A stretch of 64,000 bases of DNA from Candidatus Bathyarchaeota archaeon (GTDB lineage Archaea > Thermoproteota > Bathyarchaeia > Bathyarchaeales > Bathycorpusculaceae). A program made the position numbers and the translations under genes. The stretch covers positions 1 through 64,000 of the forward strand of contig CAVZKL010000013.1 in the NCBI GenBank assembly GCA_963775895.1. The letters run 5' to 3'. The notes beneath the pieces were generated by a model. The model was not told where the DNA came from and made no database searches. It saw nothing but the letters and a program-made list of their open reading frames with translations. Shown here piece after piece: positions 4,413 through 64,000 of this stretch (positions within the stretch are counted from its first letter, which is position 1; each line of letters starts with the position of its first letter).

Positions 4413-4475
4413 GTCTTGCACGCTAGGTTTAAATAGAATCGTTCCTTAGGTATTGAGCCCCACTGATCTGGGGTT

Positions 4476-8773: not shown

Positions 8774-9172
8774 TTGTGGAGAGACGAAATAAAATTGATG
8801 GATCAGTACAGAAAAGGCTGGGCGCTTCGTTATTTGCGGGAGGCAAAGGCCGAACTTGAGGCCGCTAAAAAAATGCCATATATGGCTTCAAGCCTAGTTT
8901 TGGAAGCCGTTAGAAAAGCTCGAAACGCCATCTACTACAGCTTAGGCGAGCCTGCTTTTGTTGAAATAGTTGTGAGGGAGACGGTCGAAAAGAAATCCCA
9001 AGACATCAACGATCCAGTGTTGAAGTGTCTTGTTGAAGTCGAAGAAACGGTCCAGCAGTTGGGACAACTTGAGGAAATGGACGGCGAGAGAGCGCTTAAA
9101 CAGGCGGATAGCCTAATACAACTGGCTTCTGAGATAGTCGAGACGTTGACGGAAGAAAAAATAGAAGATTGA
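8774..9172 (+). CDS. Hypothetical all-helical protein (HEPN-like start); likely start ATG near 8797
   Basis: WALRYLREAKAELEAA resembles HEPN helix 1; no RxxxxH motif. Confidence 0.55.
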   Translation: MWRDEIKLMDQYRKGWALRYLREAKAELEAAKKMPYMASSLVLEAVRKARNAIYYSLGEPAFVEIVVRETVEKKSQDINDPVLKCLVEVEETVQQLGQLEEMDGERALKQADSLIQLASEIVETLTEEKIED

Positions 9173-9178
9173 GGAAGC

Positions 9179-10429: not shown

Positions 10430-10512
10430 TTAGAGTGTTAATCTTCGGCGAGTGAGACTTTGTTCGCCTGTTATTGAGTCTTTTGAAAAAAAGAAGTGGA
10501 GAAAGTTGAAGG

Positions 10513-11514
10513 CTAGAAATGCTTTGCCAGGGGGCGCACTTTCAGTACGTCTTGGTTGACGAGGTTTGGGGGTTTCTTCCCTTCGAAGAAGTCTACCAGG
10601 TTTCCGGCAACCATTTCGGCCATTCTTGATCTGGTTTCAAGGCTTGCGCTCGATATGTGCGGGGCAACGACAATGTTGTCAAGTTTTAGGAGAGGATTGT
10701 CCATGGGTGTGGGTTCTTGTTCAAAAACGTCCAGTCCTGCGCCTGCGATCCATTTTTCTTTTAGGGCTTTGTACAAGGCTTTCTCGTCTACGACTGGGCC
10801 GCGAGAGTTGTTGATTATGTAGGCTGTTTTCTTCATCAGTTTCAGTCGTTGTTCGTTTATCAGGTGATGTGTTTCTTTCATCAATGGAACGTGAATTGTT
10901 ACGAAATCCGCTTGCTTCAAGAGTGTTTCAAGGTCGACGCTTTTTGCTCCGAGTTTCTGCATTTCTGGTCTCGGGATGACGTCGTAGAACAGGATTTTCA
11001 TGTCGAATCCGATTGCTCGTTTGGCCATGGCGTAGCCGATTCTGCCGGCGCCGACGATGCCTATGGTTGTGCCGAAGACGTCTCTTCCTGTGAGCATGGC
11101 GGGGTGCCATCCGACTTTCCACTGGCCGGTTCGGACGTATTTGTCTGCTTCAGCCACGCGTCTTGCGACTGCCATCAGAAGCGTCCACGCGAAGTCTGCG
11201 GTGGTGTCTGTGAGCACTTCGGGCGTGTTGGTGACATAGATTCCTCTTTTGGTTGCTTCCGGAATGTCTATGTTATCAAAGCCTACGGCTAATTGGGAAA
11301 CGATCTTCAGTTTTGGTGCTGCGTCAAAGACTTCGGCGTCGATCTTGTCAGATAGGAGCGTAGCGAGGGCGTCAACGTTCTTTGCTTTTTCTATTATCAC
11401 TTTTTTTGGTGGTGGAGCGTATTCTGGCCACACTTCAGTTTCGAAGTGTTCTTTTATTATCTTTAGACCTCTTTCTGGGAGTTCTCGAGTGACGTAGATC
11501 TTTGGTTTTGCCAT
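10513..11514 (-). CDS. gyaR: Glyoxylate reductase / D-glycerate dehydrogenase
   Basis: MAKPKIYVTRELP, NTPEVLT, GAGRIG, NNSRGPVVDE, PHISSAS. Confidence 0.85.
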   Translation of the reverse strand: MAKPKIYVTRELPERGLKIIKEHFETEVWPEYAPPPKKVIIEKAKNVDALATLLSDKIDAEVFDAAPKLKIVSQLAVGFDNIDIPEATKRGIYVTNTPEVLTDTTADFAWTLLMAVARRVAEADKYVRTGQWKVGWHPAMLTGRDVFGTTIGIVGAGRIGYAMAKRAIGFDMKILFYDVIPRPEMQKLGAKSVDLETLLKQADFVTIHVPLMKETHHLINEQRLKLMKKTAYIINNSRGPVVDEKALYKALKEKWIAGAGLDVFEQEPTPMDNPLLKLDNIVVAPHISSASLETRSRMAEMVAGNLVDFFEGKKPPNLVNQDVLKVRPLAKHF

Positions 11515-11611
11515 GTAAATCACTTCGTACAGGTTAGGTGGAATTCTTTATTAGCGTTTGACTTATTACAGTTACGCATCATCCTTGGCAACGGTCCGAG
11601 GAATTGTCGTC

Positions 11612-12988
11612 ATGATAGAGATAGAGAACAGGGAACAGTTGGTCAACAACGGTGGGACTCAGCTCGACAGGAAAGCGAGGGAACTTGCTTTGAGAGCTCT
11701 TGAAGCCGCGTTGAGAGCCGCTGACCCAAAGCAGATAGTTAAATCAAAGGTAGTGCTGAGAGACTCTGTCCTGAAAGTCGATGAGTATTCATTTGACCTG
11801 AAGAGGTTCAAGAGCGTCTATGTCGTGGGGGGCGGCAAAGCAAGCGGTTCTATGGCTGAGGCGTTGGAACAGGTTCTGGGCAGGCGCATAACCGCGGGAA
11901 TTGTGAATGTTTTGCATGGAAGTTCGAACAGGACTAGCGTTGTGAAGCTGCACGAGGCTAACCATCCTGTCCCCGATGAGGCAGGCGTGGAAGGAACGCG
12001 CAAAATGCTTGACCTTGCTGAAGCTGCCACAGCGGATGATTTGGTTATCTGTCTGATATCGGGTGGTGGCTCGAGTATGATGCCGCTGCCTCGCGGAGGA
12101 ATATCGCTGAGGGACAAGCGGCTGATGACTGACCTTTTGTTGAAGAGTGGAGCAACGATAACGGAGGTTAACACCGTGCGGAAGCACATTTCAGAGTTCA
12201 AGGGCGGTTGGCTTGCAAAGAAGGCTTATCCTGCCACTGTTTTGAACTTGATTCTGTCGGATGTTATGGGTGATCCGTTGGAATTCATCGCCTCAGGTCC
12301 AACGGTTCCTGATTCCACGTCGTTCAGTGATGCGATAGCCGTTTTGAGGAAGTATGGTCTGTGGGAGAGGGCTCCGTCATCAGTGGTCAAAGTGTTGTCG
12401 GATGGTGAGCGAGGGCTTATCGCCGAAACACCGAAGGCGAATGATGAGTGTTTTGAAAAAGTCTATAACGTTGTGATAGGGAACAATCGGCTTGCGAGTC
12501 AAGCGGTGTGCGCCGAGTTGAAGTCAGCGGGTTTGAACACGCTTCTGTTGACGTCGATGTTGGAGGGTGAGGCTAGGCACGTTGGAACGGTCTTGTCGTC
12601 GATAGTTCGCGAAGTCTCGGTTTCGGGCAATCCCGTTCATAAGCCTGGAGCCATAGTTGCTGGGGGAGAAACAACCGTGACGGTCACTGGGAAAGGGAGG
12701 GGGGGAAGAAATCAGGAGATCGTGTTGGCTGCAGCATTGAAACTTGCAGGTGCAGAGGGCGTGGTGGTTGCGTCCTTGACGACTGACGGCGTTGATGGAC
12801 CGACTGACGCTGCGGGAGCGTTGGTGGATGGAAAAACGCTTGTTAGAGCGAAGAAGATGGGGTTGGCCGTTGAGGGGTTTTTGGCGGATAATGATTCGTA
12901 CGATTTCTTTTTGAGGATGGGTGACCTTATTTTCACGGGGCCTACGGGTACAAACGTGAATGACATTTCGTTGGCTATTGTTCTGTGA
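11612..12988 (+). CDS. Glycerate 2-kinase (MOFRL family)
   Basis: GGGKASGSM, LISGGGSS, SDVMGD..IASGPT, GGETTV, GRGGRNQE, TGTNVND. Confidence 0.9.
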   Translation: MIEIENREQLVNNGGTQLDRKARELALRALEAALRAADPKQIVKSKVVLRDSVLKVDEYSFDLKRFKSVYVVGGGKASGSMAEALEQVLGRRITAGIVNVLHGSSNRTSVVKLHEANHPVPDEAGVEGTRKMLDLAEAATADDLVICLISGGGSSMMPLPRGGISLRDKRLMTDLLLKSGATITEVNTVRKHISEFKGGWLAKKAYPATVLNLILSDVMGDPLEFIASGPTVPDSTSFSDAIAVLRKYGLWERAPSSVVKVLSDGERGLIAETPKANDECFEKVYNVVIGNNRLASQAVCAELKSAGLNTLLLTSMLEGEARHVGTVLSSIVREVSVSGNPVHKPGAIVAGGETTVTVTGKGRGGRNQEIVLAAALKLAGAEGVVVASLTTDGVDGPTDAAGALVDGKTLVRAKKMGLAVEGFLADNDSYDFFLRMGDLIFTGPTGTNVNDISLAIVL

Positions 12989-14855: not shown

Positions 14856-15414
14856 TCAAGCGGTTTTCGTTAGTATTTTTGGTTCTTTCCATTCCTCTCT
14901 GAGGATGCTGAGGAGATAGACATCATTCCATACTCCTCTCACAAGCGCGGTTTTTCGCATAGTTCCTTCTATTTGGAAACCTACTTTCTTCAAAGTCTTC
15001 TGTGCCTCCTTGTTTCTTACATTTGTGGTTGTTTGTATACGAACAATGTCTTTGCTGAGAAACAGGTAATCAACCATTAGTTGAGTCGCTTCTGCTCCGT
15101 AATCCTTTTCCTCTCTCGCTGGGAACCAAGAAACAGCCAAATTCCATCGTCTCGTATGGCTGATTGGTAAATTGGCACATAAGCCCTATTTTGGTTCCGT
15201 CCTTCTTCTGAATTATGAACGGGTTGTCCATCACCGCTTTTTGAAAGTCGTTGGGATAATTATCAATCCATTGCGTCAAACCCCATTTTGGAATCTGCTC
15301 AAAAACAGGATGCGTGTATTCCCCCCAGAAATCTATCTGATTAAAACACGCAAATTGAAAATCAACGTCCTCTTTCTCTACCTTTCTCAAATTCACAAGT
15401 TTACCTTCAAGCAA
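14856..15414 (-). CDS. GNAT acetyltransferase, RimJ/RimL family; tandem paralog, frameshifted near 15100
   Basis: Two overlapping ORFs (15070-15414 and 14856-15140) join into a close paralog of 14283-14837. Confidence 0.8.
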
Positions 15415-15442
15415 CTCAACTCACCAATCATACGCTAACTTA

Positions 15443-15482
15443 CGGTTTGGCTATAACTTTTCCGCAAAACCAAAAACTGGCT
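15443..15482 (+). repeat. Cassette-junction repeat copy 1 (long form)
   Basis: CGGTTTGGCTATAACTTTTCCGCAAAACCAAAAACTGGCT. Confidence 0.9.
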
Positions 15483-15557
15483 ATATCCGTGTCAATGATT
15501 CTACCGAGAATTTTATCTGTCTGACGTGATAGACCTATCGAGAAGTGAGGGACGAAA

Positions 15558-16106
15558 ATGGGCTATCCAAGTGAATGGGAAAAAGTGTTCACGCTGAAGA
15601 ACGGCATGAAAGTTAACTTTCGACCTGAACAGTCTGGAGACACGGAAATGCTGTGGAGAATGTTCTCCACACTATCAGAGAAAAGCCTGTCGAACATGGT
15701 TGCTCCGTTCACTAGAGAACGAATAGAGGGATGGACAAGCAACATAGATTATGACAAAGTCCTAGCGATTGTTGCCGTAATTGAGGAGAAGAACGAGCAA
15801 CGAATTGTTGGCTCAGCATCACTTCTCTTTTACGAGCAGGAAACCTACAGACACAAGGGTGGGCTTGGGATTACTGTGCATGACGACTATCAAAACATGG
15901 GCATAGGCTCAGCAATGTTAAAACACCTGCTTAATATTGCCAGAATGAAAAAGCTCACAAAAATCTCTCTTATCGTAGATGCTGACAACGACAGAGCAAT
16001 TCACATTTACAAGAAAGCAGGTTTCGAAATAGAAGGAAAACTCCGCAACGAGAAATATCATAAAGGTCAATATAGTGACGAGTACAGAATGGCGATTTTC
16101 CTATAA
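15558..16106 (+). CDS. GNAT acetyltransferase
   Basis: GITVHDDYQNMGIGSAML, NDRAIHIYKKAGFEIEG. Confidence 0.9.
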   Translation: MGYPSEWEKVFTLKNGMKVNFRPEQSGDTEMLWRMFSTLSEKSLSNMVAPFTRERIEGWTSNIDYDKVLAIVAVIEEKNEQRIVGSASLLFYEQETYRHKGGLGITVHDDYQNMGIGSAMLKHLLNIARMKKLTKISLIVDADNDRAIHIYKKAGFEIEGKLRNEKYHKGQYSDEYRMAIFL

Positions 16107-16144
16107 ACAGCAACCGTCAGAAGCCACTAAGACTTGGTCCATTT

Positions 16145-16184
16145 CGGTTCGGCTATGACTTTTACGCAAAACCAAAAACTGGCT
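16145..16184 (+). repeat. Cassette-junction repeat copy 2 (long form)
   Basis: CGGTTCGGCTATGACTTTTACGCAAAACCAAAAACTGGCT, 37/40 identical to copy 1. Confidence 0.9.
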
Positions 16185-16210
16185 CATAAAGCCTTGATAG
16201 AGCAAAAAAA

Positions 16211-17197
16211 CTATGCGTATTTTCCGAGCTCACTAAGTGATGGCAAGATTACAGTATCACATATCTTATCCAATTTGGCTTGTCTAGCTATGGAAGTCCA
16301 CATCTTCTCTGTAACGACAATATCGCAATATGGTATAGCTAGAGTTAAGAACCATATGTCATTAAAGTCGTTCTTTGGTATAGGTCGTTGAAATTGCTGG
16401 TCACGTTGAAAGATTAGCGTGAAAAAACATAGAGCGGTCGGGATACTGCCAAGAAATTTATTTACGTCTCTCAGAGTCGGCTTTTCTGCAATGAAGAAAT
16501 GTTTAGGAAGATTGTATTCAATCGATATCTTTGCTAGTTCTGGCACAACGACAGCGAGGATATTTCTTGCCAAAAACACTCTTTTTCTCAGATTGTTGTC
16601 CTTTATTTCGCGTAGTTCCTGTCGAATTTTCTCCATCTCCTTGACTGGCTCCTCTAACCCTAGAATTAATGACTTGGGAAGACTCTGTTTTAGTAATAAC
16701 TCGATTGTTTTGGGTTCTTCCAATTTATCCAAGAGTTTCTTCTCAATCTCTTGGATAACCTCAGGACTTGCAAAGCCTTTCTTAAACACTAATTCGGGCT
16801 TTGCTCCGACTAAATGGGAAACCCCTTTTTTCAAAACAAAATCCCTTATGTTCACGGTAGGTAAAGCCACTTTCCTAAACACTATATTCTGAATTTCAGC
16901 TTCAATGACTTTCTCGACATATGGCTGTAATGCATAACCTTGTGATAGTTTTGCCATCAAGAAAGCTAGTTGGCTCTTACGTCTGCTACTTGCGATTTTC
17001 ATTGTCTCTTCGAAATGCGATATAGACAGAGGAAATATCAGTTGACCTTTCTCAGAGGATTGAAAGATTTTCCCTACTAGTTCTTTTTCTTCTTTTGTTG
17101 GTTGACCATAATACAATTTTGCGATATCAATCCAACATTTTTGGTCGAGGTAAACAATTTTGGTTGGTGCTCTTCCTTTTTCTGTTTTCTCCATCAC
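16211..17197 (-). CDS. Hypothetical protein with PIN-like nuclease signature
   Basis: IVYLDQKCWI...SISHFEE...NDFNDIWFL..AIPYCDIVVTEK: acidic residues in PIN-like order around a helical insert. Confidence 0.55.
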   Translation of the reverse strand: MMEKTEKGRAPTKIVYLDQKCWIDIAKLYYGQPTKEEKELVGKIFQSSEKGQLIFPLSISHFEETMKIASSRRKSQLAFLMAKLSQGYALQPYVEKVIEAEIQNIVFRKVALPTVNIRDFVLKKGVSHLVGAKPELVFKKGFASPEVIQEIEKKLLDKLEEPKTIELLLKQSLPKSLILGLEEPVKEMEKIRQELREIKDNNLRKRVFLARNILAVVVPELAKISIEYNLPKHFFIAEKPTLRDVNKFLGSIPTALCFFTLIFQRDQQFQRPIPKNDFNDIWFLTLAIPYCDIVVTEKMWTSIARQAKLDKICDTVILPSLSELGKYA

Positions 17198-50007: not shown

Positions 50008-50890
50008 TCATCTTCGAGCGTTAACGATTCTTCCCAGCAGATCAGGTATGTCGCTTGGTTTTTCGGCCACGCTCACACAGGCTCTTCCGAACGCTTCGAT
50101 CTTGCTTTCAGCTGTTCCTGCTTTCCCCATCACGATTGCGCCCGCGTGACCCATGCGTTTCCCCGGCGGTGCCGATCGCCCAGCAACATACGCCACGACA
50201 GGTTTCGCGTATTTCTCGGTGACGATGTAGTTCGCCGCCAATTCCTCAAGGTTGCCTCCGATTTCCCCTATCAGAACGACAGCTTCTGTCTGCGGATCTT
50301 TCTCGAACATCCGCAGGGCATCTATAAAGTTTAACCCGGTTATGGGGTCTCCTCCGAGACCAAGACACGTCGATTGGCCAAACTGTTTCTTCGACAAAGC
50401 AGCTGCTATCTCGTAGGTAAGAGTGCCACTCCTCGACGCCATTCCAATTCGCCCTGGCTTGAAAATGTGTGAAGGCATTATGCCAAGCTTGCAGGTTCCA
50501 GGCGTGATTATTCCAGGTGTGTTCGGGACCAATTATTGATGCCCCTTCCCGTTTTGCATAAGCCATGACCTCGATTGCGTCTTTTATCGGAATGTGCTCG
50601 GTTATTACCACCACAGTCTTTATTCCATTCTCGACTGCCTCAAACGCCGCATCCGCAGCAAAAGGCGCCGGAACAAAGATGATCGAGGCGTTCGCTGACA
50701 CTTTCTCTTGAGCCTCTGCCACGGTGTTATAGACAGGAACGCCGTTCACCTCCGTTCCGCCTTTCCCTGGCGAGGTGCCAGCCACGATTTTTGTTCCATA
50801 TTCGATCATCAGTCTCGTGTGAAACGCACCTTGAGAACCAGTTATGCCTTGGACGATTGCCCGCGTGTTCTGGTTCACTATTATTCCCAT
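50008..50890 (-). CDS. sucD: Succinyl-CoA synthetase alpha subunit, frameshifted near 50525
   Basis: QGITG, ITEHIP, GPNTPG (split), [15 protein letters not shown]. Confidence 0.9.
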
Positions 50891-50892
50891 GC

Positions 50893-52041
50893 TCAGACCC
50901 CTCCGCGTTTCGAGATCTCAACGGCGCGACGGGCCGCTTCTTCCATACTTTCAAGCACCTGAATCCCCGCGTCTGTCAATATCCGTTTTCCTTCCTCTTC
51001 ATTTGTGCCCACAAGTCTGATCACCATAGGGGTTTTAACACCGATTCTCTCTTTTGCTTCAAGTATCCCCTTGGCAACTTCATCACAGCGGGTGATACCG
51101 CCCATGATGTTTATGAAAAGAGTTTGGACCCGTGGATCTGAAAGCACTATCTTTAACGCTAACGCGTTCTTCTCTGAGGTGGCACCGCCCCCTACGTCCA
51201 AAAAGTTTGCTGGTCTGCCGCCATAATATTGGATTGTGTCGAGAGTTGCCATAACGAGTCCTGCACCGTTTCCGATAACCCCTATGTCTCCGTCAAGTCT
51301 GACGTAAGCCAAGTCGTTGTTCATTGCTTCGAGTTCCTGCGGGCTGAGGTCACTTCCACCCTCAAGAAGCCGTTTCTTGTACTCTTGATGTCTGAAAAGT
51401 GCATTATCATCAATGATTATTCGGGCGTCAGCCGCCATGAACTTGCCATCAGAAGTTTCCACAAGAGGGTTCATTTCGATGAGCTCAGCATCGTTTTCCA
51501 TACCTGCAAGATACAATCTTTCGATTATTTTGGCGAGATCCAAAATCTGGCTTCCGTTGTAACCCATTCTCCTTGCTATTTCCCGTGTCTCAAAAGTCCT
51601 TAGACCAAGTTCAGGTTTTATGGTGGTCTTTATGACTTTCTCAGGAGTTTTGGAAGCGACTTCTTCTATGTCAACTCCCCCGACGGGAGAGGCAATCGCC
51701 ACGTAGCACTGGTTGAACCTGTCAGTGGTTACTCCGAAATAGAGTTCTTTGCTAACTTGGATCTTTTCTTCGATCCACACGCTTTTGACGGGTATGTCTT
51801 TGATTTTCATGTTAAGCAGTTTTTCAGCGACTTTTTCTGCTTCCTCAGCGGATTGGGCGAATACTATGCCACCTGCCTTCCCTCTTCCTGCGACCAGAAC
51901 CTGAGCCTTCACGACAACGGGCATTCTAAGCTTAAGTGCAATTTCATGAGCTTGGCTCGGGCTTGTCGCTAATCCTCCTTGGGGTGTGGCGACGCCATGC
52001 TTTGCAAGAATGCTTTTTGCTTCATATTCGTACAGTTTCAA
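50893..52041 (-). CDS. sucC: Succinyl-CoA synthetase beta subunit
   Basis: [36 protein letters not shown]. Confidence 0.93.
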
Positions 52042-53588: not shown

Positions 53589-54927
53589 ATGAAACGAGGA
53601 ACACCTCTCATGAAGTTGGATCTCATTGGTGATTGGAACAGAACGCATTATTCTGACGAAGTAAAGCCAGAAGATGACGGCAAAGAAGTAACCCTGTTCG
53701 GCTGGGTTCAAGAGATCAGAGACCTAGGTGGCATCCGCTTCATAATACTGCAAGATCGCGAAGGCACGATTCAAATCACCGTTTTACGAAAAAAAGCAAA
53801 CAGCGAAGTGCTTTCGAAGTCAGACTCTTTACAAAAACGGTACAGCATAGGTGTCAGAGGAACAGTAAAGAAGACCAAGATGACGCCGAGAGGAATCGAA
53901 GTCATTCCGAACGAAATCAGAATCTTCAACACAGCCGAACAATTACCAATAGACATCTGCGGGAGGACTCCTGCAAATCTGGAAGTCTGTCTAGACTCAC
54001 GCGCGCTAGACCTGTCTCTTGAAAAGAACGTAGCGGTCTTCAAGATTCAACACAACGCCGTCGTGGCAGTCCGAGACTTTCTCTTCGAAAGAGGCTTCTT
54101 GGAAGTGCACACTCCACGCATAATCGCCTCGGCAACCGAAGGCGGAGCAGCACTTTTTCAACTTGATTACTTCGAAAGAAAAGCGTACCTCGCCCAGAGC
54201 CCGCAGCTCTACAAAGAAGAGCTCGTCATGAGCCTCGAAAAGGTCTTCGAAATAGGACCCTTCTTCAGAGCTGAAGAATCGCATACACGACATCACCTGA
54301 GTGAATTCGTATCGATAGACATCGAACAAGCCTTTGCCACACAAGAGGACGTCATGCAAATTCTTGAACAGCTGATTCAGCATATCTGCAAGAGCCGTGG
54401 CGGAAAAGTGCAAGAAGGAACTGATGACGCTTAAGTACAGTCTGAAAGTGCCTGACGTTCCTTTCAAACGTTTGACTTACGATCAGATACTGGAAGAATT
54501 GAAAAAAGAAGGAATCGATGTTTCATGGGGCGAAGACATTCCGACCCCGGCGTTCAGAACGATAGGCAAACTTCACCCATACTTCTATTTCATAGTCGAC
54601 TGGCCCACTGAATCAAAAGCATTCTACATAAAACCACGCGATGACAACCCAGAGATTTCCGAAGGATTTGACTTGATGTGGCGATGGATGGAGCTCGTTT
54701 CAGGCGGAACAAGAATCGCATCCAAAGAACTGCTGATAAAACGACTGAAAGAAAAGGGCCTCAACCCGGAATCCTTCAAACATCATCTGCAAGCTTTCGA
54801 CTACGGCATGCCACCACACGCAGGCTGGGCAATAGGGTTAGAAAGATTGACGATGATGCTGACCGGAAAGAAAAACATACGAGAAGTCATGCTGTACCCA
54901 CGCGACAAGTTCAGACTCACCCCATAG
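53589..54927 (+). CDS. aspS: Aspartate--tRNA ligase, archaeal type, frameshifted near 54395
   Basis: GWVQEIRDLG, LAQSPQLYK, FRAEES; GMPPHAG..GLERL, YPRD. Confidence 0.9.
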
Positions 54928-55020
54928 CTTTGTTTAGCACTGTTCTTGTAAAAATCATCATCCTTTTTAGCTGAAAATGTGCTAAAAACTGATAAATACC
55001 ACTTGCGTTATTCCCAAGCC

Positions 55021-56538
55021 ATGGGAGACGAACCAGGGATCGAATGCGGCGTATTCGGTGCGATAAGCCGCAATAGCCAACACGTGTTTCCATACATATA
55101 CTGGGGCATGAGAGCTCAAAACCACAGAGGACACCAATCACACGGTTTTCTCACTTATCTTGACGGAAAATTCTACGCAAACAGAAGCCTCGACCTCGTG
55201 CCGAAAATCAAGACAAACGCGATCCAAGAATGGTTTGGACGATTGCCAGGAAACATCGGCATCGGAAACGTCAGGTACACCACCTCAGGAAAATGCGACG
55301 AAAAATCGCTTGTGAAGGGAACACAACCCGTAACGGCCTCCAAGAAACGGTTCAAACTGGCTGTATCATTCAACGGTAACATCGTGAACACTTTTCAGCT
55401 CAAGAGAGACATTCTCAAACAGTTTCCACACTTCTCTTATGAGTGCGACGCAAACCTGGTCTGCTACAAACTGTTGATAGAATACTTGAAAAGTCAAGAC
55501 ATTACCTCGGCCGCGGAAGCTTGTATGAAAGAGATTGATGGAGCGTTCTCAGTGGCCGCCGTAACGCAGGACGGTGATTTCTTCGCATTCAAAGACCCAC
55601 ATGGAATAAGACCACTCTGCGCAGGACACAGCGAAGACAATTCAATCTACGCCTTCTCCTCAGAAACTGCGAGCCTCGACATAAACGGCTTTCAAAGAGA
55701 CTTTGAGCTGGAACCCGGAGAACTTGTCAAAGTCACAGAAAACGGTTTTGAAAGAAAAAGACTGGTCAGAGAGCAGAGAAAAGCGTTCTGCTCCTTTGAA
55801 TTCGCGTACTTCGCCAGACCAGATTCACGGTTCGACGACAAATATGTTTACGAAGTTCGAGAGGAATTTGGAAGGAACCTTGTCAGGGAAAACCCAGACG
55901 TCGTGAAGGATGCAGACATAGTCATTTCTGTACCTGAGACTGCAGACGACGCAGCTATGGGAGTTCATGAGGCTTCCGGATTAAGATGGGAAAGAGCCTC
56001 GCGAAGACATCGCTACGTAACCGAAAGGGCTTTCATCCTCCTAAGCAGAGATCGAAACCAAACGATTGACAGAAAAATAAACATCCTAGAGCCCAAGATT
56101 GAGGGCAAACGCATAGTCGTGACAGACGATAGCATCGTCAGAGGAGACACAACAAAGATTATCGTTGCGAAACTCCGCAAGATGAGGGCCAAGAAGGTGT
56201 ACTTGTTCGTCACCTTTCCACGCATAATCGGACCATGCTTCTACGGAGTGGACATGGCCACGTACGGCCAACTCTTGGGTGCAAAACACAATCCCGAAGA
56301 AATAAGCGAGATAATAGGCGCAGACAAGGTTTGCTACCAGTCTATCGAAGGCCTTGTCAAGGCAACAGGATTCAAAAAAGAAGAATTGTGCACGGGTTGC
56401 ATAACAGGCGAGTATCCAACACCCTTAGCCCAGAGAATAGCGGATGACGTGAAGAAACGGCTCCTTCAAGGTTACGAAGAGAAAGAAAGATTGTACGAGA
56501 TAGAAGAGCCAATTGAAGCTACCTGTGGGACTGATTAG
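55021..56538 (+). CDS. purF: Amidophosphoribosyltransferase
   Basis: ECGVFG, QNHRG, RYTTSG, NGNIVN, FEFAYFARPDS, DDSIVRG. Confidence 0.92.
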   Translation: MGDEPGIECGVFGAISRNSQHVFPYIYWGMRAQNHRGHQSHGFLTYLDGKFYANRSLDLVPKIKTNAIQEWFGRLPGNIGIGNVRYTTSGKCDEKSLVKGTQPVTASKKRFKLAVSFNGNIVNTFQLKRDILKQFPHFSYECDANLVCYKLLIEYLKSQDITSAAEACMKEIDGAFSVAAVTQDGDFFAFKDPHGIRPLCAGHSEDNSIYAFSSETASLDINGFQRDFELEPGELVKVTENGFERKRLVREQRKAFCSFEFAYFARPDSRFDDKYVYEVREEFGRNLVRENPDVVKDADIVISVPETADDAAMGVHEASGLRWERASRRHRYVTERAFILLSRDRNQTIDRKINILEPKIEGKRIVVTDDSIVRGDTTKIIVAKLRKMRAKKVYLFVTFPRIIGPCFYGVDMATYGQLLGAKHNPEEISEIIGADKVCYQSIEGLVKATGFKKEELCTGCITGEYPTPLAQRIADDVKKRLLQGYEEKERLYEIEEPIEATCGTD

Positions 56539-56576
56539 GTCTTTCACGATCATTTCAACAGTATGAGGGGGCTCCG

Positions 56577-57986
56577 ATGGAAAAAGTAGGCATACTCGTG
56601 GTTTCATACGGTTCAAGAGAAGCAGCGATGATTGATGCCTTCACGCGCAGTACGAAGTACAATGCAGAAATTTATGTGGTGGACAAACAGCACAACCCGT
56701 TCAACGTGGAAAAGGCGGCCAAACACGTTGTCATACCCGATTTGAACATTGAAAAGATCTGCAAATTCGCAGATGCAAACAAGAACCGCGTTGATTTCGG
56801 CATTGTAGGTCCAGAGAAGCCGATAGTTGAAGGAATACGCGACCTTGTAGAGAAACGTACGAAAATACCGATGATTTGCCCCACAAAAAAGTATGCTATT
56901 GAGGAGAGCAAAGTAGAGCAACGACTGTTGTTTGACAGAATCGTGCCCGAAGCAAATCCTCGCTTCAAAATCTTCAACCCAGAGGATTACGAGGACGTTT
57001 CAGAAGTCAAGAGAGATGTTTACAGTTGGCTTGACGTATTGGAAAACCAAGCCGTCGTCAAACCTGACAAGCCCGCAGCTGGAAAAGGAGTAGGCGTTTG
57101 GGGAGACCACTTCAACACGCGAGAACAGCTTTTCGAGCACTTTCTATCGAATTATCGTCACGGTCCTGTGATTATCGAAGAGAGAATTGAAGGGGAAGAA
57201 TCAAGCTTTCAAGCGTTCTGCGACGGAAAACACCTGGTCCCCTTACCTGACACGAGAGACTACAAGCGAGCGTTCGACCAAGATAAAGGACCAAATACTG
57301 GAGGAATGGGTTCTTACAAAGACACAGGTGACATACTACCATTCCTGACAAAGACAGACCGAGCCAAAGAACTGGAAGTTGCCGACAGAATCTTTCAGAA
57401 ATGGAAAGGAAAAGACAATTCTTCTTTGAGAGGTGTACCCTTATACCTTGCCTTTATGCACTCAAACAAAGGATTGAAAATCCTTGAAAACAACAGCCGC
57501 CCAGGAGACCCCGAGATAATCAACATCTTACCCGTGCTAGAGGACGATTTTGTCGATGTCTGCTTCAGAATGCTTGAAGGAAGCCTCACTCAGATTGAGC
57601 TTCGGAAAGCAGCCACGGTAGTAACCTATAAGGCTCCACCTTCCTATGCAGGATTCTGTGAAAACTTCCCCAAGCGCGTAGACAAAGCTCACGTTGACAA
57701 ACCGGTTGATCTCACGGGAGCCTATGAACTCAGCAGAAGACACCCTGACCAAGTGCGAGTTTATCCCGGCTCAATGGAAAAACGCGACGGCAAGAACTTC
57801 ACCTTGAGGTCCAGAACAGTCTGCACGGTGGGAATCGCGGACAACATTGAGGATGCCCGATCAATATCGCTCGATGCCTTAAAAGCAATCAAAGGCGGAG
57901 CTCTTTGGTACAGGACCGACATAGCGTCAACGGCTCACATAAAGAAAAGCGTTAGTCATTTGGAGAGCTTGAGGCGCAACCCGTGA
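56577..57986 (+). CDS. purD: Phosphoribosylamine--glycine ligase
   Basis: GSREAA, VGPE, AAGKGV, DYKRAFDQDKGPNTGGMG, NSRPGDPE. Confidence 0.9.
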   Translation: MEKVGILVVSYGSREAAMIDAFTRSTKYNAEIYVVDKQHNPFNVEKAAKHVVIPDLNIEKICKFADANKNRVDFGIVGPEKPIVEGIRDLVEKRTKIPMICPTKKYAIEESKVEQRLLFDRIVPEANPRFKIFNPEDYEDVSEVKRDVYSWLDVLENQAVVKPDKPAAGKGVGVWGDHFNTREQLFEHFLSNYRHGPVIIEERIEGEESSFQAFCDGKHLVPLPDTRDYKRAFDQDKGPNTGGMGSYKDTGDILPFLTKTDRAKELEVADRIFQKWKGKDNSSLRGVPLYLAFMHSNKGLKILENNSRPGDPEIINILPVLEDDFVDVCFRMLEGSLTQIELRKAATVVTYKAPPSYAGFCENFPKRVDKAHVDKPVDLTGAYELSRRHPDQVRVYPGSMEKRDGKNFTLRSRTVCTVGIADNIEDARSISLDALKAIKGGALWYRTDIASTAHIKKSVSHLESLRRNP

Positions 57987-59066
57987 AAGGGGTCTTCGTA
58001 TCAGACTGTGAAGGACCGATCTCAAAAAACGACAACGCCTTTGAAATAACTGCACAATTTGTTCCCTCTGGAGACAAGATTTTCACGTTGATAAGCAGGT
58101 ATGACGATGTGCTTGCAGAATTGGTCAAGAAACCTGGCTACAAGGCAGGCGACACGCTGAAGCTAATCCTACCCTTTCTGAAAGCCTATGGAGTAACAGA
58201 TCTATTGATCAGGGAATTGTCGGCAAGAAAGTTGGCCTTGATGCCTCTCGTGAAAATCACTCTGGATTATATCACGAAGATTGCGCCAGCCTATGTTATC
58301 AGCACAAGCTACGAACACTATATTGAAGCTCTATGCAAAGCAATCGGTTTTCCTTTCGAAAACACGTACTGCACCAAACTGCGTTTAGACAGATACGAGT
58401 TGGGATGGCAGGAAAGGGATCAGCTTAGGCGAATCGCTTCGGAGATAACGGTGATGCCGACCTTCGAAATTCCACTGCGGAGCTACCAGTCTGAAAGACC
58501 TTCCTGTGAAGGCACAAGCAACGGTTCGAAAGTTAGACGAGATTTTCTGGGACACAATAGAGAAAATGCAAATTGGAAGAATCTATTCAGAAGTGAATCC
58601 GATCGGCGGAATTGAAAAAGCTCAAGCCATCGAGGAGATCGTCAACAGACTATCCACAAGGCTTGCAGACGTCATGTATGTTGGCGATAGCATCACCGAT
58701 GAGGAAGCGTTGAAACTAGTGAAAGAAAACGATGGCCTCGCAGTTTCCTTCAACGGAAACCAGCACGCAGTTGAAAATGCAGACATCGCATTAATGTCTC
58801 CAGATTGTACAGTCACCGCCATAATCGCTGAAACTTTTCTCCGATTTGGAAAGAAAGAGACACTAGCCCTAGTGGCGAATTGGAATAGACAAACGCTAGA
58901 AAAGAGTCCATTGAACAATGATTTGATCAAGCTGTTTCTCAGATTACATCCGCGCAATTTGCCTAAAGCTAAAATAATAAAGAAAGAAGATAGGGCAAAG
59001 CTGTCGAAAGAAAGCAGCGAATTCAGAAAAAAGGTTAGAGGAGAACGAGTTGGCAGGTTAGGATGA
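57983..59066 (+). CDS. HAD-superfamily hydrolase (EhaR-like), frameshifted near 58490
   Basis: [40 protein letters not shown]. Confidence 0.75.
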
Positions 59067-59980
59067 ACTTGGTTAACAAAAACTTGATTCAAGATACTTT
59101 CGCTGAGGCTTTTGATGGATTCTACACCCGATTGATCGTAACTGCAGACGACTCGGAAACGCTGAGACGTGCAGTGGAAGACGCAACAGCTACGCCTTCC
59201 ACCGTGATCGACAGGATCGAAGGCGGAACAGAGAAGTGGCTTACGGAGAAAGAGACTCCGGACAAACGGAAAGGCGCAATTCTGCAGTTTTGGGGAGCAC
59301 ATCATAAGAAGAAACCGTTCTCGGACAGTTTGAAGAAGTTTGAGACTGAACTCTCTTACAGAATACGGCAAGACATATTGGTCAAGCCGTTTACAGCCGT
59401 TTTTGACGCTTTGCCAAATGCTGAAGGAAAGATTGACATGATGGAACGGGTTGGCCATTGCGGCGATGGATATGAATGGATGGAAAAAAGACACGAAAGA
59501 GAAGTAATAGTTGTGCCAATAATGGTTCCTGACTTCGTGATCGAACGTTACTTGGGTTATGCCCGCGGCGTCATGGGGGCCAACTTTTGGATAATGTGCA
59601 AAACCAAAGAGGCATTGAGGGAAGCTGGGAAAAAAGCGCTGGCAGCTATACACGGAGTGGAAGGTGTAATAACACCGTTTGACGTCTGCTCTGCAGGTTC
59701 GAAGCCGGAAACGAACTTTCCATGGATTGGACCGACAACGAACCAACTTTACTGTCCATCTCTAAAAGGGAAGCTCGACGGGGATTCAAGGGTGCCCGAA
59801 GGCGTCAACTACATACCTGAAATTGTCATCGATGGAATTTCAATGAACGCAGTGAAGGAAGCAATGAAGAAGGGAATATCGGCCGCATCGAAAATCAAAG
59901 GTGTCGTCGGAATATCCGCTGGCAACTACGACGGCAAACTGGGCGAGTACAAGATCTACTTGAGAGAGCTGTTCAGATGA
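59063..59980 (+). CDS. ftr: Formylmethanofuran--tetrahydromethanopterin formyltransferase homolog
   Basis: [49 protein letters not shown]. Confidence 0.85.
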
Positions 59981-60897
59981 GCCAGTTCGACGCAGTTGGG
60001 TTCGGAGCTCTTAACGTCGACAAGCTTTTCAAAGTTGAAAAAATAGCTGCGGCAGAAGAGGAAACTTCAGTAATCGACTACTCGGAGACGTGTGGCGGTT
60101 CAGCCGCAAACACAATGGTTGGCTTGGCAAGACTCGGCTGCAAAGTGGGTTTCATCGGAAAAATCGCCTGGGATCCTGAAGGAAAAATGCTCTTGCAAGA
60201 TTTCAGACGAGAAAGAGTCGACACTAAAGGAATGGTCATCACCAAAGATGGCAGAAGTGGCAAAGTCATGGGTTTCGTGGATAAAAATGGTCAGCGAGCC
60301 CTGTACGTTGATGCAGGCGTGAACGATGCGATGAGACCAGAAGACGTGAACTTGACCTACGCTTCGAACGCAAAGCTAGTGCACCTAACGTCCTTCGTCG
60401 GACAACAGTCATTTCAAACTCAGAAATGGCTTCTCAATAAGCTGCCCTTGAGGGTTAAGGTGAGCTTTGACCCAGGAGCTCTCTATGCAAGAACTGGAAT
60501 GGCGAAACTCCAACCGATAATAGAGAGAACTTCTATAATGCTGCCGAACGCAGATGAACTTGCACTAATAACGGGTAAAAATGATTACAGAGAAGGAGCG
60601 AAACTGCTACTTGACAACGGCGTAAAGATAATAGCCGTCAAGCTTGGAAACCATGGATGTTATGTGACGGATGGAAGGGAAAGCCATATTGTAGCTCCGT
60701 TCAAGGTCAAAGTAATCGACACGACAGGGGCCGGAGACGCGTTTGACGCTGGTTTTCTCTACGGTTTGCTAAGAGACAGGAGTCTCGAAGAAGCTTCTAG
60801 AATTGGCAACTTCGTTGCTTCAAAGTGCATAATGGCAATGGGCGCGAGACTTGGGTTGCCAACGCTCAAAACCCTAACAACCGAGATGCAGATGTGA
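59977..60897 (+). CDS. PfkB family carbohydrate/nucleoside kinase
   Basis: [19 protein letters not shown]. Confidence 0.9.
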
Positions 60898-60955
60898 CCA
60901 GAGACAACGCATCCAGCCGCAGGATTCTAAGCCTATGAAAAGATCATAAAGTTCC

Positions 60956-61776
60956 TTAACGTTCTCTCTCCAAATAGTTAATCAGGCTTTCAAAAATGAG
61001 ACTTCCATCTGAGAATTCTGGCATTTTCAGTTGCCGTGTCCAATCCGGTCGCTGCCACCAGTAGAAGGCTCTTTCAGGATGCGGCATCAGACCGAAAATG
61101 GTGCCCTCTGGGTTGCATATACCTGCTATGTCGTGAAATGCACCGTTCGGGTTGGCCGGATAAGAACCTTTGGCGTATTCGCCATCTTTCTTGCAGTAGC
61201 GGAATACCAGCTGATCGTTTTCAACAAGTTTTTCCAAATAGCGCTTCTCTCTCTCTTTTGCGAAGATAAATCTTCCTTCAGCGTGCGCAACAGGTACGTG
61301 GATTGTTTTCCCCTTTCTGCATCTTCGAAGTGAACACGCATTTTCCACTGTTCTCGTGTTTGAGGCTGATCCATCTGCAATTGTAACCCGGCGGAACATT
61401 CGTTGCTAATGCAGCCTCAGGCACTTGGCTGGTACCCTCAAACCCTGGAAGCAGACCGGCCTCAACAAGCACTTGGAAACCGTTGCAGATCCCGAGGATC
61501 GGACGATTCTCATCCACGAAAGCCTTGAGCTCTTTGCCCAACTTCGCAAGTACCCATTTCGCCCATATGGCCCCAGCCCGAACGTAGTCTCCGTAAGAGA
61601 AACCGCCGGGGAAAACGAGTGCATCATAATCCAGCATGTTCTTTCGCTTGATCATTTCGTTGACGTGAACAATTTCGGCCTTGACCCCAAGTTCTCTTGA
61701 ATGAACGCCCCGTTTCGGCGTCACAGTTGGTTCCACCGACGCGCAAAACGCAGATCCTGATCTCTTCCCTTTTCAT
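60956..61776 (-). CDS. purQ: FGAM synthase glutaminase subunit PurQ, frameshifted near 61700 and 61315
   Basis: GTNCDAET; [15 protein letters not shown]; AHAEG, NPNG, MPHPER across three frames. Confidence 0.88.
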
Positions 61777-61778
61777 AT

Positions 61779-64000
61779 TCAAACCCCCGCGCTGAGCGAC
61801 CCCTTCCAAGCTGCCAGAAGGTCGTTAATTGAAGCGTCAATCACAATTTCACGCGTCAACCCCCGGATGCGCAGGCTTGTCGTTTTTGTAACCCTTCCTA
61901 TTTCGGATAAGACTTGCCCCTTCATCAGAGTTTCAAAGTGATCTTTTGCTTTCTGTGAAACTTCAACTAAGAAGCGGCTGTTCGACTCTGAGAACAGAAC
62001 CAAATCATTGCGGCTCAAATTACGCCTCGGAACGTCTAACAAGTTCATTTCGATGCCGTACCCACCTGCAAATGCCATCTCAGCTGCTGCAACCGCCAGA
62101 CCTCCTTCTGACAGGTCGTGACAAGCCTTGACTAGGCCCAAATCGATGGCCTTTGTCAACGCGCGGTAAGTCTTCTTTGCCTGTTTCCCGCGCACTTTGG
62201 GCACGGTTTTACCGATAAAGCCGTTCAGTCTATAGTACTCCGAGCCACCAAGTTCGAAGAAAGTCTCCCCAACAATATACATTGAGTCGCCGTTTGACTT
62301 CACGTCCATTGAAACCGCGGAACGCACGTCTGGAATGATGCCTAATGCGGTTATAAGAAGTGTCGGAGTCACTGGCCCCAAGGGCGATTCGTTGTAAAGG
62401 CTGTCTTTGCCCGAAATGAAGGGTGTTTCATAAGCAACTGCAAAATCATAACAGGCTTCACATGCTCTTACAAGGCTACCCAGTCGTTCTGGTCGTTCAG
62501 GGTTCCCCCACGTGAAGTTGTCCAGCAATGCGATACGTCGGCCACCCACGGCCACGTTGTTTCTTATCGCCTCATCAATCACGGAGGCTGCCATCCAATA
62601 AGTGTCGATCTTACCATAGTTCGGGTTCATCCCGCATGAGATCACGATACCTTTCCAAGAATCGTTCAGTGGTTTCAGTACCGCAGCGTCATTTGGTCCC
62701 GCGTTTTCTCCCTGGAATGGTTTCAGCACAGTGTTTCCTTTCACTTCGTGGTCGTACGTTCGAACAACGCTCTCTTTGCTGGCGATGTTGGGTGACGCAA
62801 GAAGTTTCAACAACGTTTCCGTAAGTCGTTTTGAATCTGGCAAATTTGGCTCCTCAAACTGCGTATGCTCAAGTACCGCAGTTTTCGTCGTCTTTGGCGG
62901 CCCAAACAGAAAGGCGAGATCCATCCTTGCGACTTTCTGACCTTGATAGCTGAGTTCCAGAGTTCTCTCAGAAACGAGTGTTCCGATTGCGGTAGCCTGA
63001 ACGTCTTCCTCTTTGAAAACGTTCAATGCTCTTTCAAGGTTTTCAGGTGGCACGGTCAGGAGCATTCTCTCTTGGGATTCAGAAATGTAGATCTCCCATG
63101 GAGCTAATCCAGCGTATTTCAGGGGGACTTTCTCGAGGTTCACCTTAGCACCGACTGCAAACCTGTTTGCGGTTTCGCCCACTGCAGAGGATAAACCGCC
63201 TCCGCCCAGATCAGTGATCGAGGATGCAAGCTCCAAGTCTCGGATCGCGATTATCGCTCTTTTCAGTTTCTCTTCTTCTATGGGGTTTGCAATTTGCACG
63301 GATGGACGTGACACTTCTTCAGATTTCTCCGTCAGTTCTGCTGATGCAAAGGTCACGCCGTGAATGCCGTCTCGGCCGGTCTTGCCGCCTGCGATTACGA
63401 TTATGTCGTTTGGTTTGGCGGCTTTCTTGAACTTCCTAAGAGGAAGTAATCCGACGCATCCGCAGTAGACAACGACGTTTCCGACATAGGTTTCGTCGAA
63501 GTATATGGCGCCGTTCACCGTCGGAATTCCCATGTTGTTTCCGTAGCTTCCTATGCCCGCCACTACGCCCATGTACACGTATTTGGGATGCTTGACACCG
63601 GCTGGAAGCTTTGTGTAGTCGAAGTCCAAAGGGCCGAAGCCCAGTACGTCAGTGCAAGCGATTGGGTCAGCCCAGACGCCCAATATGTCGCGGATGACTC
63701 CGCCTGTTCCTGTGGCTGCCCCTCCGAAGGGTTCCACTGCGCTTGGATGGTTGTGTGTTTCCACTTTCATCGCTATTCCGTGATTTTTGTCAAAATCCAC
63801 GATTCCAGCGTTGTCTTCGAAAACAGAGAAACACCATTTTGGTTTGATCTTCTTGACAGTTTCAGAGATGTATGTCTTGAATAGACTGTTGATTTCTTTT
63901 CCTTTGAATTTTATCTTGCCCTTGAAGGTTTTATGGTAGCAGTGTTCAGACCATGTTTGGCCTAGGGTTTGGAGTTCCACGTCGGTTGGATTTCGACGTT
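61779..64000 (-). CDS. purL: FGAM synthase subunit PurL (5' end beyond the window)
   Basis: WSEHCYHK, ETHNHPSAVEP, DLGGGG, SESQERM, GKDSLYN, HDLSEGG. Confidence 0.93.
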   Translation of the reverse strand, partial: RRNPTDVELQTLGQTWSEHCYHKTFKGKIKFKGKEINSLFKTYISETVKKIKPKWCFSVFEDNAGIVDFDKNHGIAMKVETHNHPSAVEPFGGAATGTGGVIRDILGVWADPIACTDVLGFGPLDFDYTKLPAGVKHPKYVYMGVVAGIGSYGNNMGIPTVNGAIYFDETYVGNVVVYCGCVGLLPLRKFKKAAKPNDIIVIAGGKTGRDGIHGVTFASAELTEKSEEVSRPSVQIANPIEEEKLKRAIIAIRDLELASSITDLGGGGLSSAVGETANRFAVGAKVNLEKVPLKYAGLAPWEIYISESQERMLLTVPPENLERALNVFKEEDVQATAIGTLVSERTLELSYQGQKVARMDLAFLFGPPKTTKTAVLEHTQFEEPNLPDSKRLTETLLKLLASPNIASKESVVRTYDHEVKGNTVLKPFQGENAGPNDAAVLKPLNDSWKGIVISCGMNPNYGKIDTYWMAASVIDEAIRNNVAVGGRRIALLDNFTWGNPERPERLGSLVRACEACYDFAVAYETPFISGKDSLYNESPLGPVTPTLLITALGIIPDVRSAVSMDVKSNGDSMYIVGETFFELGGSEYYRLNGFIGKTVPKVRGKQAKKTYRALTKAIDLGLVKACHDLSEGGLAVAAAEMAFAGGYGIEMNLLDVPRRNLSRNDLVLFSESNSRFLVEVSQKAKDHFETLMKGQVLSEIGRVTKTTSLRIRGLTREIVIDASINDLLAAWKGSLSAGV

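Follow-up and report, generated by a model that had tools for sequence, protein, structure and literature searches.

In purine synthesis, PurD makes glycinamide ribonucleotide (GAR) and PurL consumes formylglycinamide ribonucleotide (FGAR), the conversion of GAR to FGAR being the third step of the pathway. For several archaeal lineages with purine synthesis of their own, two papers (PMC3261824, PMC9012536) state that no enzyme for this step is known. Here we examine a stretch of 64,000 nucleotides (the window; GenBank assembly GCA_963775895.1, contig CAVZKL010000013.1, positions 1–64,000) from a Bathyarchaeia metagenome-assembled genome (MAG; 1.77 Mb, 28 contigs, 88.8% complete), in which a paralog of formylmethanofuran:tetrahydromethanopterin (H4MPT) formyltransferase, here termed Ftr2, is encoded within a purine operon. 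Our reading, at somewhat better than even confidence, is that Ftr2 formylates GAR in these organisms, which would constitute a third route to FGAR, dependent on methanofuran or H4MPT. The substrate, the formyl donor and the chemistry are our inferences; what the sequences themselves show is which genes are present, how they are ordered, how the Ftr clades divide and how the genes are distributed among genomes.

The operon begins with purF (amidophosphoribosyltransferase; 54979–56538, forward strand; TIGR01134 318.9 bits against a cut-off of 350, GATase_6/7 domains) and, after a gap of 38 nucleotides, continues on the same strand with purD (GAR synthetase; 56577–57986; GARS_N, GARS_A and GARS_C domains, TIGR00877 245.6 bits), a HAD-superfamily gene (57983–59066; about 360 amino acids if intact), ftr2 (59063–59980; PF01913, PF02741 and NF002554) and a gene for a PfkB-family, ribokinase-like kinase (59977–60897; PF00294 185.4 bits). 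Converging on it from the reverse strand are purQ, for the glutaminase subunit of formylglycinamidine ribonucleotide (FGAM) synthase (60956–61736; two half-frames that correspond to the two halves of the NF002252 PurQ model), and purL, for FGAM synthase II (61779–63980; TIGR01736 660.5 bits, cut-off 525.75). The purD/HAD, HAD/ftr2 and ftr2/pfkB junctions each overlap by 4 nucleotides, the last at 59977–59980. This layout, established from the list of open reading frames (ORFs) together with Pfam and NCBIfam scans of the window, confirms the purF–purD–HAD–ftr–pfkB operon facing purQ–purL that had been read from the letters alone. purF lies upstream of purD in related loci too.

The window contains no purN or purT that family scans could find, as the sequence-only reading had held, and the gap extends to the genome. 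For PurN, there is no PF00551 (Formyl_trans_N) match anywhere in the 1.77 Mb, nor any match to PF00551 or TIGR00639 among the operon proteins. For PurT (TIGR01142, NF006766), none was found in the genome, the best score being 38.9 bits on a 1,007-amino-acid ORF of the size of a carbamoyl-phosphate synthase. Neither a PurH-type AICAR formyltransferase (AICARFT; AICAR, 5-aminoimidazole-4-carboxamide ribonucleotide) nor PurP was found in this 88.8% complete genome. The absence of PurP is best explained by the missing 11% of the genome, because all sampled families with Ftr2 have PurP (f1, 8/8; f2, 6/6; f3, 2/2; f4, 1/1; f5, 3/3; f6, 3/3; f8, 1/1). With purF, purD, purQ and purL all present, PurN and PurT not found and PurP in the relatives, the step without a known enzyme is therefore GAR to FGAR. 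Eight of eight relatives from the same family (95–100% complete) likewise have no PF00551 match and no PurT.

The genome also carries FwdA (799 bits; an intact fwdA on contig C17), and therefore formyl-methanofuran can be made. A second fwdA-like gene, beyond the window at 64739–66356 of contig C11, reads as two fragments of 337 and 243 bits and contains a single in-frame TGA. A second Ftr, of the canonical type (Ftr1), is encoded on contig C12, so the proposal that the operon copy serves GAR formylation survives a genome-wide search for purN, purT and a canonical ftr.

The Ftr fold of the operon protein is clear from its sequence. Both lobes match their families (PF01913 148.1 bits, PF02741 189.4 bits; NF002554 345.2 bits against a cut-off of 297), solved Ftr chains are matched over the full length (E values of 4e-54 to 1e-27), and close homologs bear Bathyarchaeia names. 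The score for the canonical Ftr equivalog TIGR03119, 229.6 bits, is below its cut-off of 292.6, and phylogenies likewise place the protein outside the clade of canonical, housekeeping Ftr. In a tree of 56 full-length representatives, taken from the 150 best cluster representatives in a search of 1.84 billion proteins, the Ftr2 proteins of Bathyarchaeia and Hydrothermarchaeota separate from the Ftr1 proteins of the same genomes with a support of 100 in the Shimodaira–Hasegawa-like approximate likelihood ratio test (SH-aLRT). A second tree of 59 sequences, including both copies from named Hydrothermarchaeota and Bathyarchaeia, unites the window protein, the second Hydrothermarchaeota copies, Aenigmatarchaeota sequences and a single Helarchaeota copy in one group (SH-aLRT 96); every ‘first’ copy falls together with FhcD-type sequences from bacteria (SH-aLRT 100), and the Ftr1 and Ftr2 labels require a single change on this tree.

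Taxa among the 150 best cluster representatives, supplemented by name look-ups, were Thermoproteota, Aenigmarchaeota, Promethearchaeota, Planctomycetota and one bacterial label; Protein Atlas gives ‘Ftr family’ with coarse taxa only. The scan of genome contigs reached Aenigmatarchaeota, Hydrothermarchaeota and Helarchaeota, and no Methanobacteriales or Archaeoglobi sequences were among those it covered. The Helarchaeota contig (L153) carries three Ftr-family genes (3865–4803, 10318–11262 and 11289–12152), one of Ftr2 type, one of Ftr1 type and one very divergent, with a branch length of 1.9.

Comparison of 24 Ftr2-type with 28 Ftr1-type sequences reveals a conserved catalytic core with clade-specific alterations around it. 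The catalytic Glu253 is invariant in both groups (24/24 and 28/28) and corresponds in the alignment to the Glu within the ‘YEIVING’ stretch of 1FTR, presumably the residue numbered Glu245 in the active site of Methanopyrus kandleri Ftr, and many core residues are common to the two. The equivalent Glu stabilizes the oxyanion in FhcD (Glu252) and in Ftr, according to PMC6926001. Position 133 is fixed as Cys in Ftr2 and is Phe in 28/28 Ftr1 sequences; Arg51 and Arg102 are fixed in Ftr2, where Ftr1 mostly has Pro and Gly; further fixed differences are Gly223-Pro224, Trp77 and Pro252; and Ftr2 has two deletions relative to Ftr1, one of a single residue and one of two residues in the PFPGG motif. 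Ftr2 is thus very probably still a formyl-amide transferase, and it looks like an active one with a remodelled pocket. Arg51 and Arg102 are candidates for holding a phosphate.

The distribution of Ftr2 was followed across an evenly drawn sample of 201 Thermoproteota genomes, the same set being searched with Ftr2, PF00551, PurT and HAD queries (PurT-type matches at E ≤ 1e-40). An Ftr match is present in 52 of them. Long Ftr2-type matches (at least 57% identity) occur in 21, all Bathyarchaeia, with short pieces in two more (G110 and G114), and 29 genomes have Ftr1-type matches only (at most 42% identity). Among the Ftr2 carriers, PF00551 is found in 0/21 and a PurT-type protein in 0/21; among the Ftr1-only genomes, 14/29 have PF00551 and 10/29 a PurT-type protein, so that 24/29 have one of the two. 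One PurT-type match that was checked scored 258.6 bits with NF006766, compared with 84 bits for PurK.

Three local cases sharpen this pattern. In the f7 lineage (G074 and G042), which has neither Ftr2 nor PurP, purF–purD is followed directly by a gene for a 278-amino-acid Formyl_trans_N protein (PF00551 62.5 bits; best NCBIfam model PurN, 76.6 bits), which occupies the slot held elsewhere by HAD–Ftr2–PfkB. About 12 kb away lie genes for a PurH-type AICARFT, FolD, a PfkB paralog (35–36% identical) and HAD. With a PurN-like protein, a PurH-type AICARFT and FolD, both formyl-transfer steps have therefore been swapped to folate-type enzymes, which suggests that purine synthesis in this lineage draws on a folate-like carrier. 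In the corresponding loci (L166/L167, at C1:412000–445000 of G074, and L168/L169 of G042), AICARFT, FolD, the PfkB paralog, a flavodoxin and HAD fall within about 7 kb. The f6 family shows a switch between sister genera: g18 has Ftr2 and HAD and no PurT, whereas g17 has a divergent PurT (NF006766 258.6 bits) and neither Ftr2 nor HAD; no PfkB ortholog was found in G007, the g17 genome searched with the PfkB query. Finally, G026 (98% complete) lacks Ftr2, HAD and, at E ≤ 1e-20, purD; it keeps purQ–purL, with no part of the block within 9 kb.

Within Bathyarchaeia the cluster is held together almost without exception. We examined 145 Bathyarchaeia-type loci, 80 from metagenomes (Ftr2 71–95% identical) and 65 from genomes, the Hydrothermarchaeota locus L109 and the Helarchaeota locus L153 having been removed from the genome set before counting; counts refer to loci with enough flanking sequence. 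HAD lies directly upstream of Ftr2 in 71/71 metagenome and 62/62 genome loci, PfkB directly downstream in 72/72 and 63/63, purD within 3 kb upstream in 53/54 and 56/56, and convergent purQ, as part of a purQ–purL pair, within 6 kb in 50/53 and 54/57. Ftr2 is conserved to the same degree as PurL and more than HAD or PfkB. HAD and Ftr2 are set apart by additional sequence in 11 of 133 loci; this measures about 1.0–1.2 kb in L012, L018, L019, L023, L026, L027, L034, L048, L070 and L077 and 0.6 kb in L152, and that of L018 codes for a protein of about 330 amino acids with an N-terminal hydrophobic segment. Two records titled as bacterial, Candidatus Acidoferrum and Limnocylindrales (L121 and L143), contain a typical Bathyarchaeia cluster (Ftr2 74% identical) on contigs that are probably mis-binned.

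The two partner genes belong to the same module as Ftr2. HAD is present in 24 of the 201 Thermoproteota genomes, namely all 21 Ftr2 carriers, G114 and the two f7 genomes. Its N terminus reads ‘SDCEGP’ (motif DCEGP), with an Asp followed at +2 by Glu where Asp is usual, and family models (HAD-IB/IIB) match weakly and in its C-terminal half only, at 24–25 bits, below or near their cut-offs. The closest solved structure is 1Y8A (AF1437 of Archaeoglobus fulgidus; E 1.1e-24 over residues 4–288). No family model in the Pfam and NCBIfam scans matched the ‘EhaR-like’ label that the sequence-only reading had attached to this protein, and the label was not confirmed. For the kinase, ribokinase is the highest-scoring named model, with 161 bits under a cut-off of 299.65, and no equivalog cut-off is reached; the translation contains ‘DTTGAGD’, an instance of the DTxGAGD catalytic-Asp motif. 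Because the sugar-binding and catalytic motifs, which we take to be ribokinase-like, are kept, PfkB probably phosphorylates the 5′-OH of a ribofuranose. Likely orthologs are found in two Hydrothermarchaeota (46–49% identity), and three Ftr2-less Bathyarchaeia searched with PfkB gave matches of only 32–36%, or none.

In the canonical Ftr reaction, the formyl group passes between methanofuran, where it is carried on the primary amine, and H4MPT, where it sits on N5; the tetrahedral intermediate is stabilized by a protonated Glu. In the mechanism that we propose, Ftr2 would keep the Ftr fold, an active site located at the dimer interface, together with the oxyanion-stabilizing protonated Glu, and would pass the formyl group from a Wood–Ljungdahl carrier to the primary amine of GAR. 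The reactive group of GAR, H2N–CH2– beside an sp2 carbon, is similar to the head group of methanofuran, an aminomethylfuran, and GAR could therefore stand in for methanofuran, with N5-formyl-H4MPT as the donor; alternatively, GAR would replace H4MPT and formyl-methanofuran would be the donor. Either transfer would be near thermoneutral and pulled on by the ATP-driven PurL step, the FGAR formed being consumed by PurL and PurQ, which are encoded alongside. AICAR formylation would be handled separately by PurP, present in relatives, through which formate enters purine C2 (PMC3087415).

The order purD–HAD–Ftr2–PfkB, in which a phosphatase-like HAD precedes Ftr2 and the kinase comes after, would fit a sequence of dephosphorylation, formylation and rephosphorylation, a speculation to which we give low odds. 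In its most extended form, HAD would strip the 5′-phosphate from GAR, Ftr2 would formylate the riboside from formyl-methanofuran or N5-formyl-H4MPT, and PfkB would rephosphorylate it with ATP to give FGAR for PurL; the same module would be EhaS/EhaT and the GAR formyltransferase missing since 2011 in Methanobacteriales, Archaeoglobi, Methanopyrus and anaerobic methanotrophic archaea of group 1 (ANME-1), and co-transcription with the anaplerotic hydrogenase Eha would answer a need to replenish the formyl-methanofuran pool drained by purine synthesis. As a whole, this chain of proposals is decidedly unlikely.

Beyond Bathyarchaeia, Ftr2 was sought in 38 Hydrothermarchaeota genomes (the phylum of G208, including records titled Hydrothermarchaeum and Pyrohabitans). 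Ftr2-type matches occur in 31/38 (52–61% identity over at least 182 residues), usually together with Ftr1, and purD in 36/38. PurT-type matches are found in 0/38 at E ≤ 1e-30 and PF00551 in 3/38, all weak (58–83 bits). HAD homologs at 31–36% identity are present in the two genomes checked, and the neighbourhoods of Ftr2, HAD and PfkB yielded no functional hint. In Hydrothermarchaeum (L176; C9:584000–602000 of G003), the PfkB ortholog (8824–9723) adjoins genes of NAD synthesis and lies about 5 kb upstream of a polyferredoxin gene and fwdA (15015–16718), a loose link of the kinase to formyl-methanofuran genes.

A number of observations weigh against a role of Ftr2 in GAR formylation. The known substrates of Ftr are two bulky coenzymes, and to our knowledge GAR formylation by an Ftr fold is without precedent. 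In the phyletic pattern, five of the 29 Ftr1-only genomes have neither PurN nor PurT (G026, G126, G134, G135 and G190; three of these are 72–82% complete), G110 (4% contamination) combines a 150-residue Ftr2-like piece with a PurT-type gene, two Hydrothermarchaeota (G223 and G228) have both Ftr2 and a weak PF00551 match, and the sampled genomes are related, leaving few independent contrasts, about five. HAD persists in f7 without Ftr2 and is thus not strictly tied to it. Synteny across the class is high, even aspS staying upstream, and therefore conservation of the cluster is by itself weak functional evidence; the link between Ftr2 and pur genes is seen in Bathyarchaeia only, and Hydrothermarchaeota have Ftr2, HAD and PfkB dispersed in unrelated neighbourhoods away from pur. 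Two Aenigmatarchaeota genomes, both small MAGs of 0.7–1.0 Mb, have an Ftr2-type protein as their sole Ftr, and neither purD (at E ≤ 1e-20) nor FwdA was detected in either; in one of the two, HAD and PfkB adjoin the Ftr2-type gene, and that genome also carries a PurL-like gene. Last, the identity of the Bathyarchaeia protein with euryarchaeal EhaS or Ftr2 is a tentative one, drawn from the shared pairing of an Ftr-like gene with a PfkB gene, and the correlation in the literature may concern another paralog.

The sequence-only reading, that an Ftr paralog provides the route for GAR formylation, thus stands in part. Its core is favoured by the complementarity with PurN and PurT, the PurN-like gene in the same slot in f7 and the joint absence of Ftr2 and purD in G026; the interconversion of riboside and ribotide forms that it attached to HAD and PfkB is speculative, and the persistence of HAD in f7, the missing pur linkage in Hydrothermarchaeota and the Aenigmatarchaeota genes without purD or fwdA limit the reading as a whole. 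The gene linkage on which it was built is kept across the Bathyarchaeia loci and does not extend to Hydrothermarchaeota.

Among other explanations, one unlikely reading that still deserves weight takes Ftr2 as an ordinary Ftr isoenzyme for anabolic one-carbon supply, co-regulated within the pur operon, with a different enzyme formylating GAR from formyl-H4MPT or formate. The two full Ftr domains and the above-cut-off NF002554 score are as expected of an isoenzyme, as are the catalytic Glu and the many core residues common with Ftr1, the lack of pur linkage in Hydrothermarchaeota and the constitutive expression of both A. fulgidus ftr genes given in PMC3949148. An isoenzyme would not be expected to be absent where PurN- or PurT-type proteins are present, nor to be lost together with purD, as in G026; in f7 the slot after purD has been taken by a PurN-like gene and not by another Ftr; the substitutions fixed in the clade, among them its two own arginines and Cys in place of Phe at 133, are likewise at odds with it, and the operon holds no other consistent candidate gene for the step.

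It is less probable again that HAD–Ftr2–PfkB forms a ribose, nucleoside or cofactor module, for example one for methanopterin or methanofuran synthesis or salvage, with no direct role in GAR formylation and a position in the pur operon that reflects inherited synteny. The trio found together in an Aenigmatarchaeota genome in which purD and FwdA were not detected, the f7 HAD that occurs without Ftr2 near FolD and a PfkB paralog, and the resemblance of the kinase to ribokinase or ribose-1-phosphate kinase all fit such a module, as does the Ftr-like and kinase gene pair of Methanothermobacter, which lies in the eha and not in a pur operon (PMC3087415). A cofactor module predicts Ftr2 in all archaea with Ftr1, whereas the Ftr1 genomes with a PurN- or PurT-type protein (24/29) have none; the loss alongside purD and the in-place replacement by a PurN-like gene also speak against it. 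We regard as very improbable the proposal that GAR is formylated from free formate by an unrecognized ATP-grasp enzyme, such as one of two PurP-family paralogs, with Ftr2 irrelevant to the step. Most Ftr2-bearing relatives do have two PF06973 (PurP family) matches, and a duplicated purP of unknown role is discussed in PMC3261824. Two such matches are equally common in lineages with PurN or PurT, however, so that copy number does not track the gap in the pathway, and both the Ftr2 pattern and the operon would be left unexplained.

Three genes in and beside the operon are broken in this assembly. HAD, purQ and aspS (53589–54927) are each split into two ORFs by one extra base, at about 58476, 61305 and 54394, respectively, giving three single-base insertions within 8 kb, one of which hits an essential tRNA synthetase gene. 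A metagenome contig 95% identical to the window has one base fewer at about 58476 (HAD) and 54394 (aspS), and contigs from four public runs of two studies have one base fewer at 54395, at 58475 or 58477, and at 61305. HAD is intact in locus L006, and purQ is in a single frame in relatives. The breaks are most likely errors of this assembly, with the genes intact in the population, because the extra bases are absent from the 95%-identical contig or from the four-run contigs; true pseudogenization of HAD, purQ and aspS was considered and rejected, the extra bases being missing from these contigs.

The assembly seems prone to such insertion and deletion errors. Elsewhere in the window, a succinyl-CoA synthetase pair (50246–52041, reverse strand) comprises a complete β-subunit of 382 amino acids and an α-like ORF of 214 amino acids with the CoA-binding domain alone, which may be another frame break of the kind seen in HAD, purQ and aspS. 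A separate contig (L112; CAWJGR010000005.1) carries purF–purD–HAD–Ftr2–PfkB and, behind it, the same cluster in inverted orientation, with numerous frame breaks; the arrangement looks like a palindromic artefact of long-read assembly. Upstream of the operon in the window are aspS, a KH-domain protein gene, Alba and a regulator gene, and no hydrogenase genes were seen among the window neighbours of the Ftr2–PfkB pair.

A published analysis found no purN or purT in two Archaeoglobi, four ‘Methanomicrobiales’ (the listed species being Methanobacteriales) and M. kandleri, and notes that Methanothermobacter thermautotrophicus is a purine prototroph (PMC3261824, 2011). GAR formyltransferase is likewise missing in ANME-1, and uncharacterized Ftr2 paralogs are reported in ANME-1, ANME-2a/b, Archaeoglobales, M. 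kandleri and Methanothermobacter marburgensis, the missing step and the paralogs appearing in separate sections and unconnected in the text at hand (PMC9012536, 2022). Two A. fulgidus papers, one of them PMC3949148, merely list both ftr genes. Searches of the literature, whose coverage leaves out most subscription journals, turned up no proposal that an Ftr paralog formylates GAR.

Should the reading hold, GAR formyltransferases would gain a third class, unrelated to the other two, filling a gap that has been in print since 2011, and Ftr2 would represent the first biosynthetic use of a methanofuran- or H4MPT-bound formyl group outside one-carbon energy metabolism. Thousands of genes now labelled ‘Ftr’, in Bathyarchaeia, Hydrothermarchaeota and probably methanogens, would receive a corrected annotation, and models of carbon flow would change, with purine C8 coming from the Wood–Ljungdahl pool and not from free formate.

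Set beside known systems, Ftr2 is closest to canonical Ftr (1FTR and 2FHJ of M. kandleri, 1M5H of A. fulgidus and 1M5S of Methanosarcina barkeri), with which it is homologous over both lobes (E values of 4e-54 to 3e-47) and shares the oxyanion Glu. It differs in its separate clade, its fixed substitutions, its two small deletions and its site in a purine operon, and the acceptor, H4MPT in canonical Ftr, would be GAR. FhcD of the bacterial Fhc complex (6S6Y; E 1.2e-27) belongs to the same family and is an Ftr homolog in another context, acting in the direction from formyl-H4MPT to the furan-amine (PMC6926001); unlike Ftr2, it groups with the Ftr1 type in the tree (P0149, Planctomycetota) and is part of a four-subunit complex. 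For the operon HAD, the only solved relative is AF1437 (1Y8A), a HAD-fold protein of unassigned function from a lineage reported without PurN and PurT.

The Methanothermobacter genes once annotated as a formyltransferase and a ribokinase are EhaS and EhaT, co-transcribed with ehaA–R and regarded by the authors as hydrogenase subunits (PMC3087415), and they share with the window an Ftr-like gene beside a PfkB-type kinase gene. Methanobacteriales, like this genome, are without PurN and PurT according to PMC3261824. EhaS/EhaT lie in the eha hydrogenase operon, whereas the window pair stands among purF, purD, purQ, purL, aspS, the KH-domain protein gene and Alba. With PurN and PurT, finally, Ftr2 would have in common the reaction from GAR to FGAR and a place in the pathway and the operon, a PurN-like gene holding the same slot in f7, and it bears no relation to either in sequence or fold. 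The donors would also differ: PurN uses 10-formyl-tetrahydrofolate and PurT formate and ATP, whereas Ftr2 would draw on formyl-methanofuran or formyl-H4MPT.

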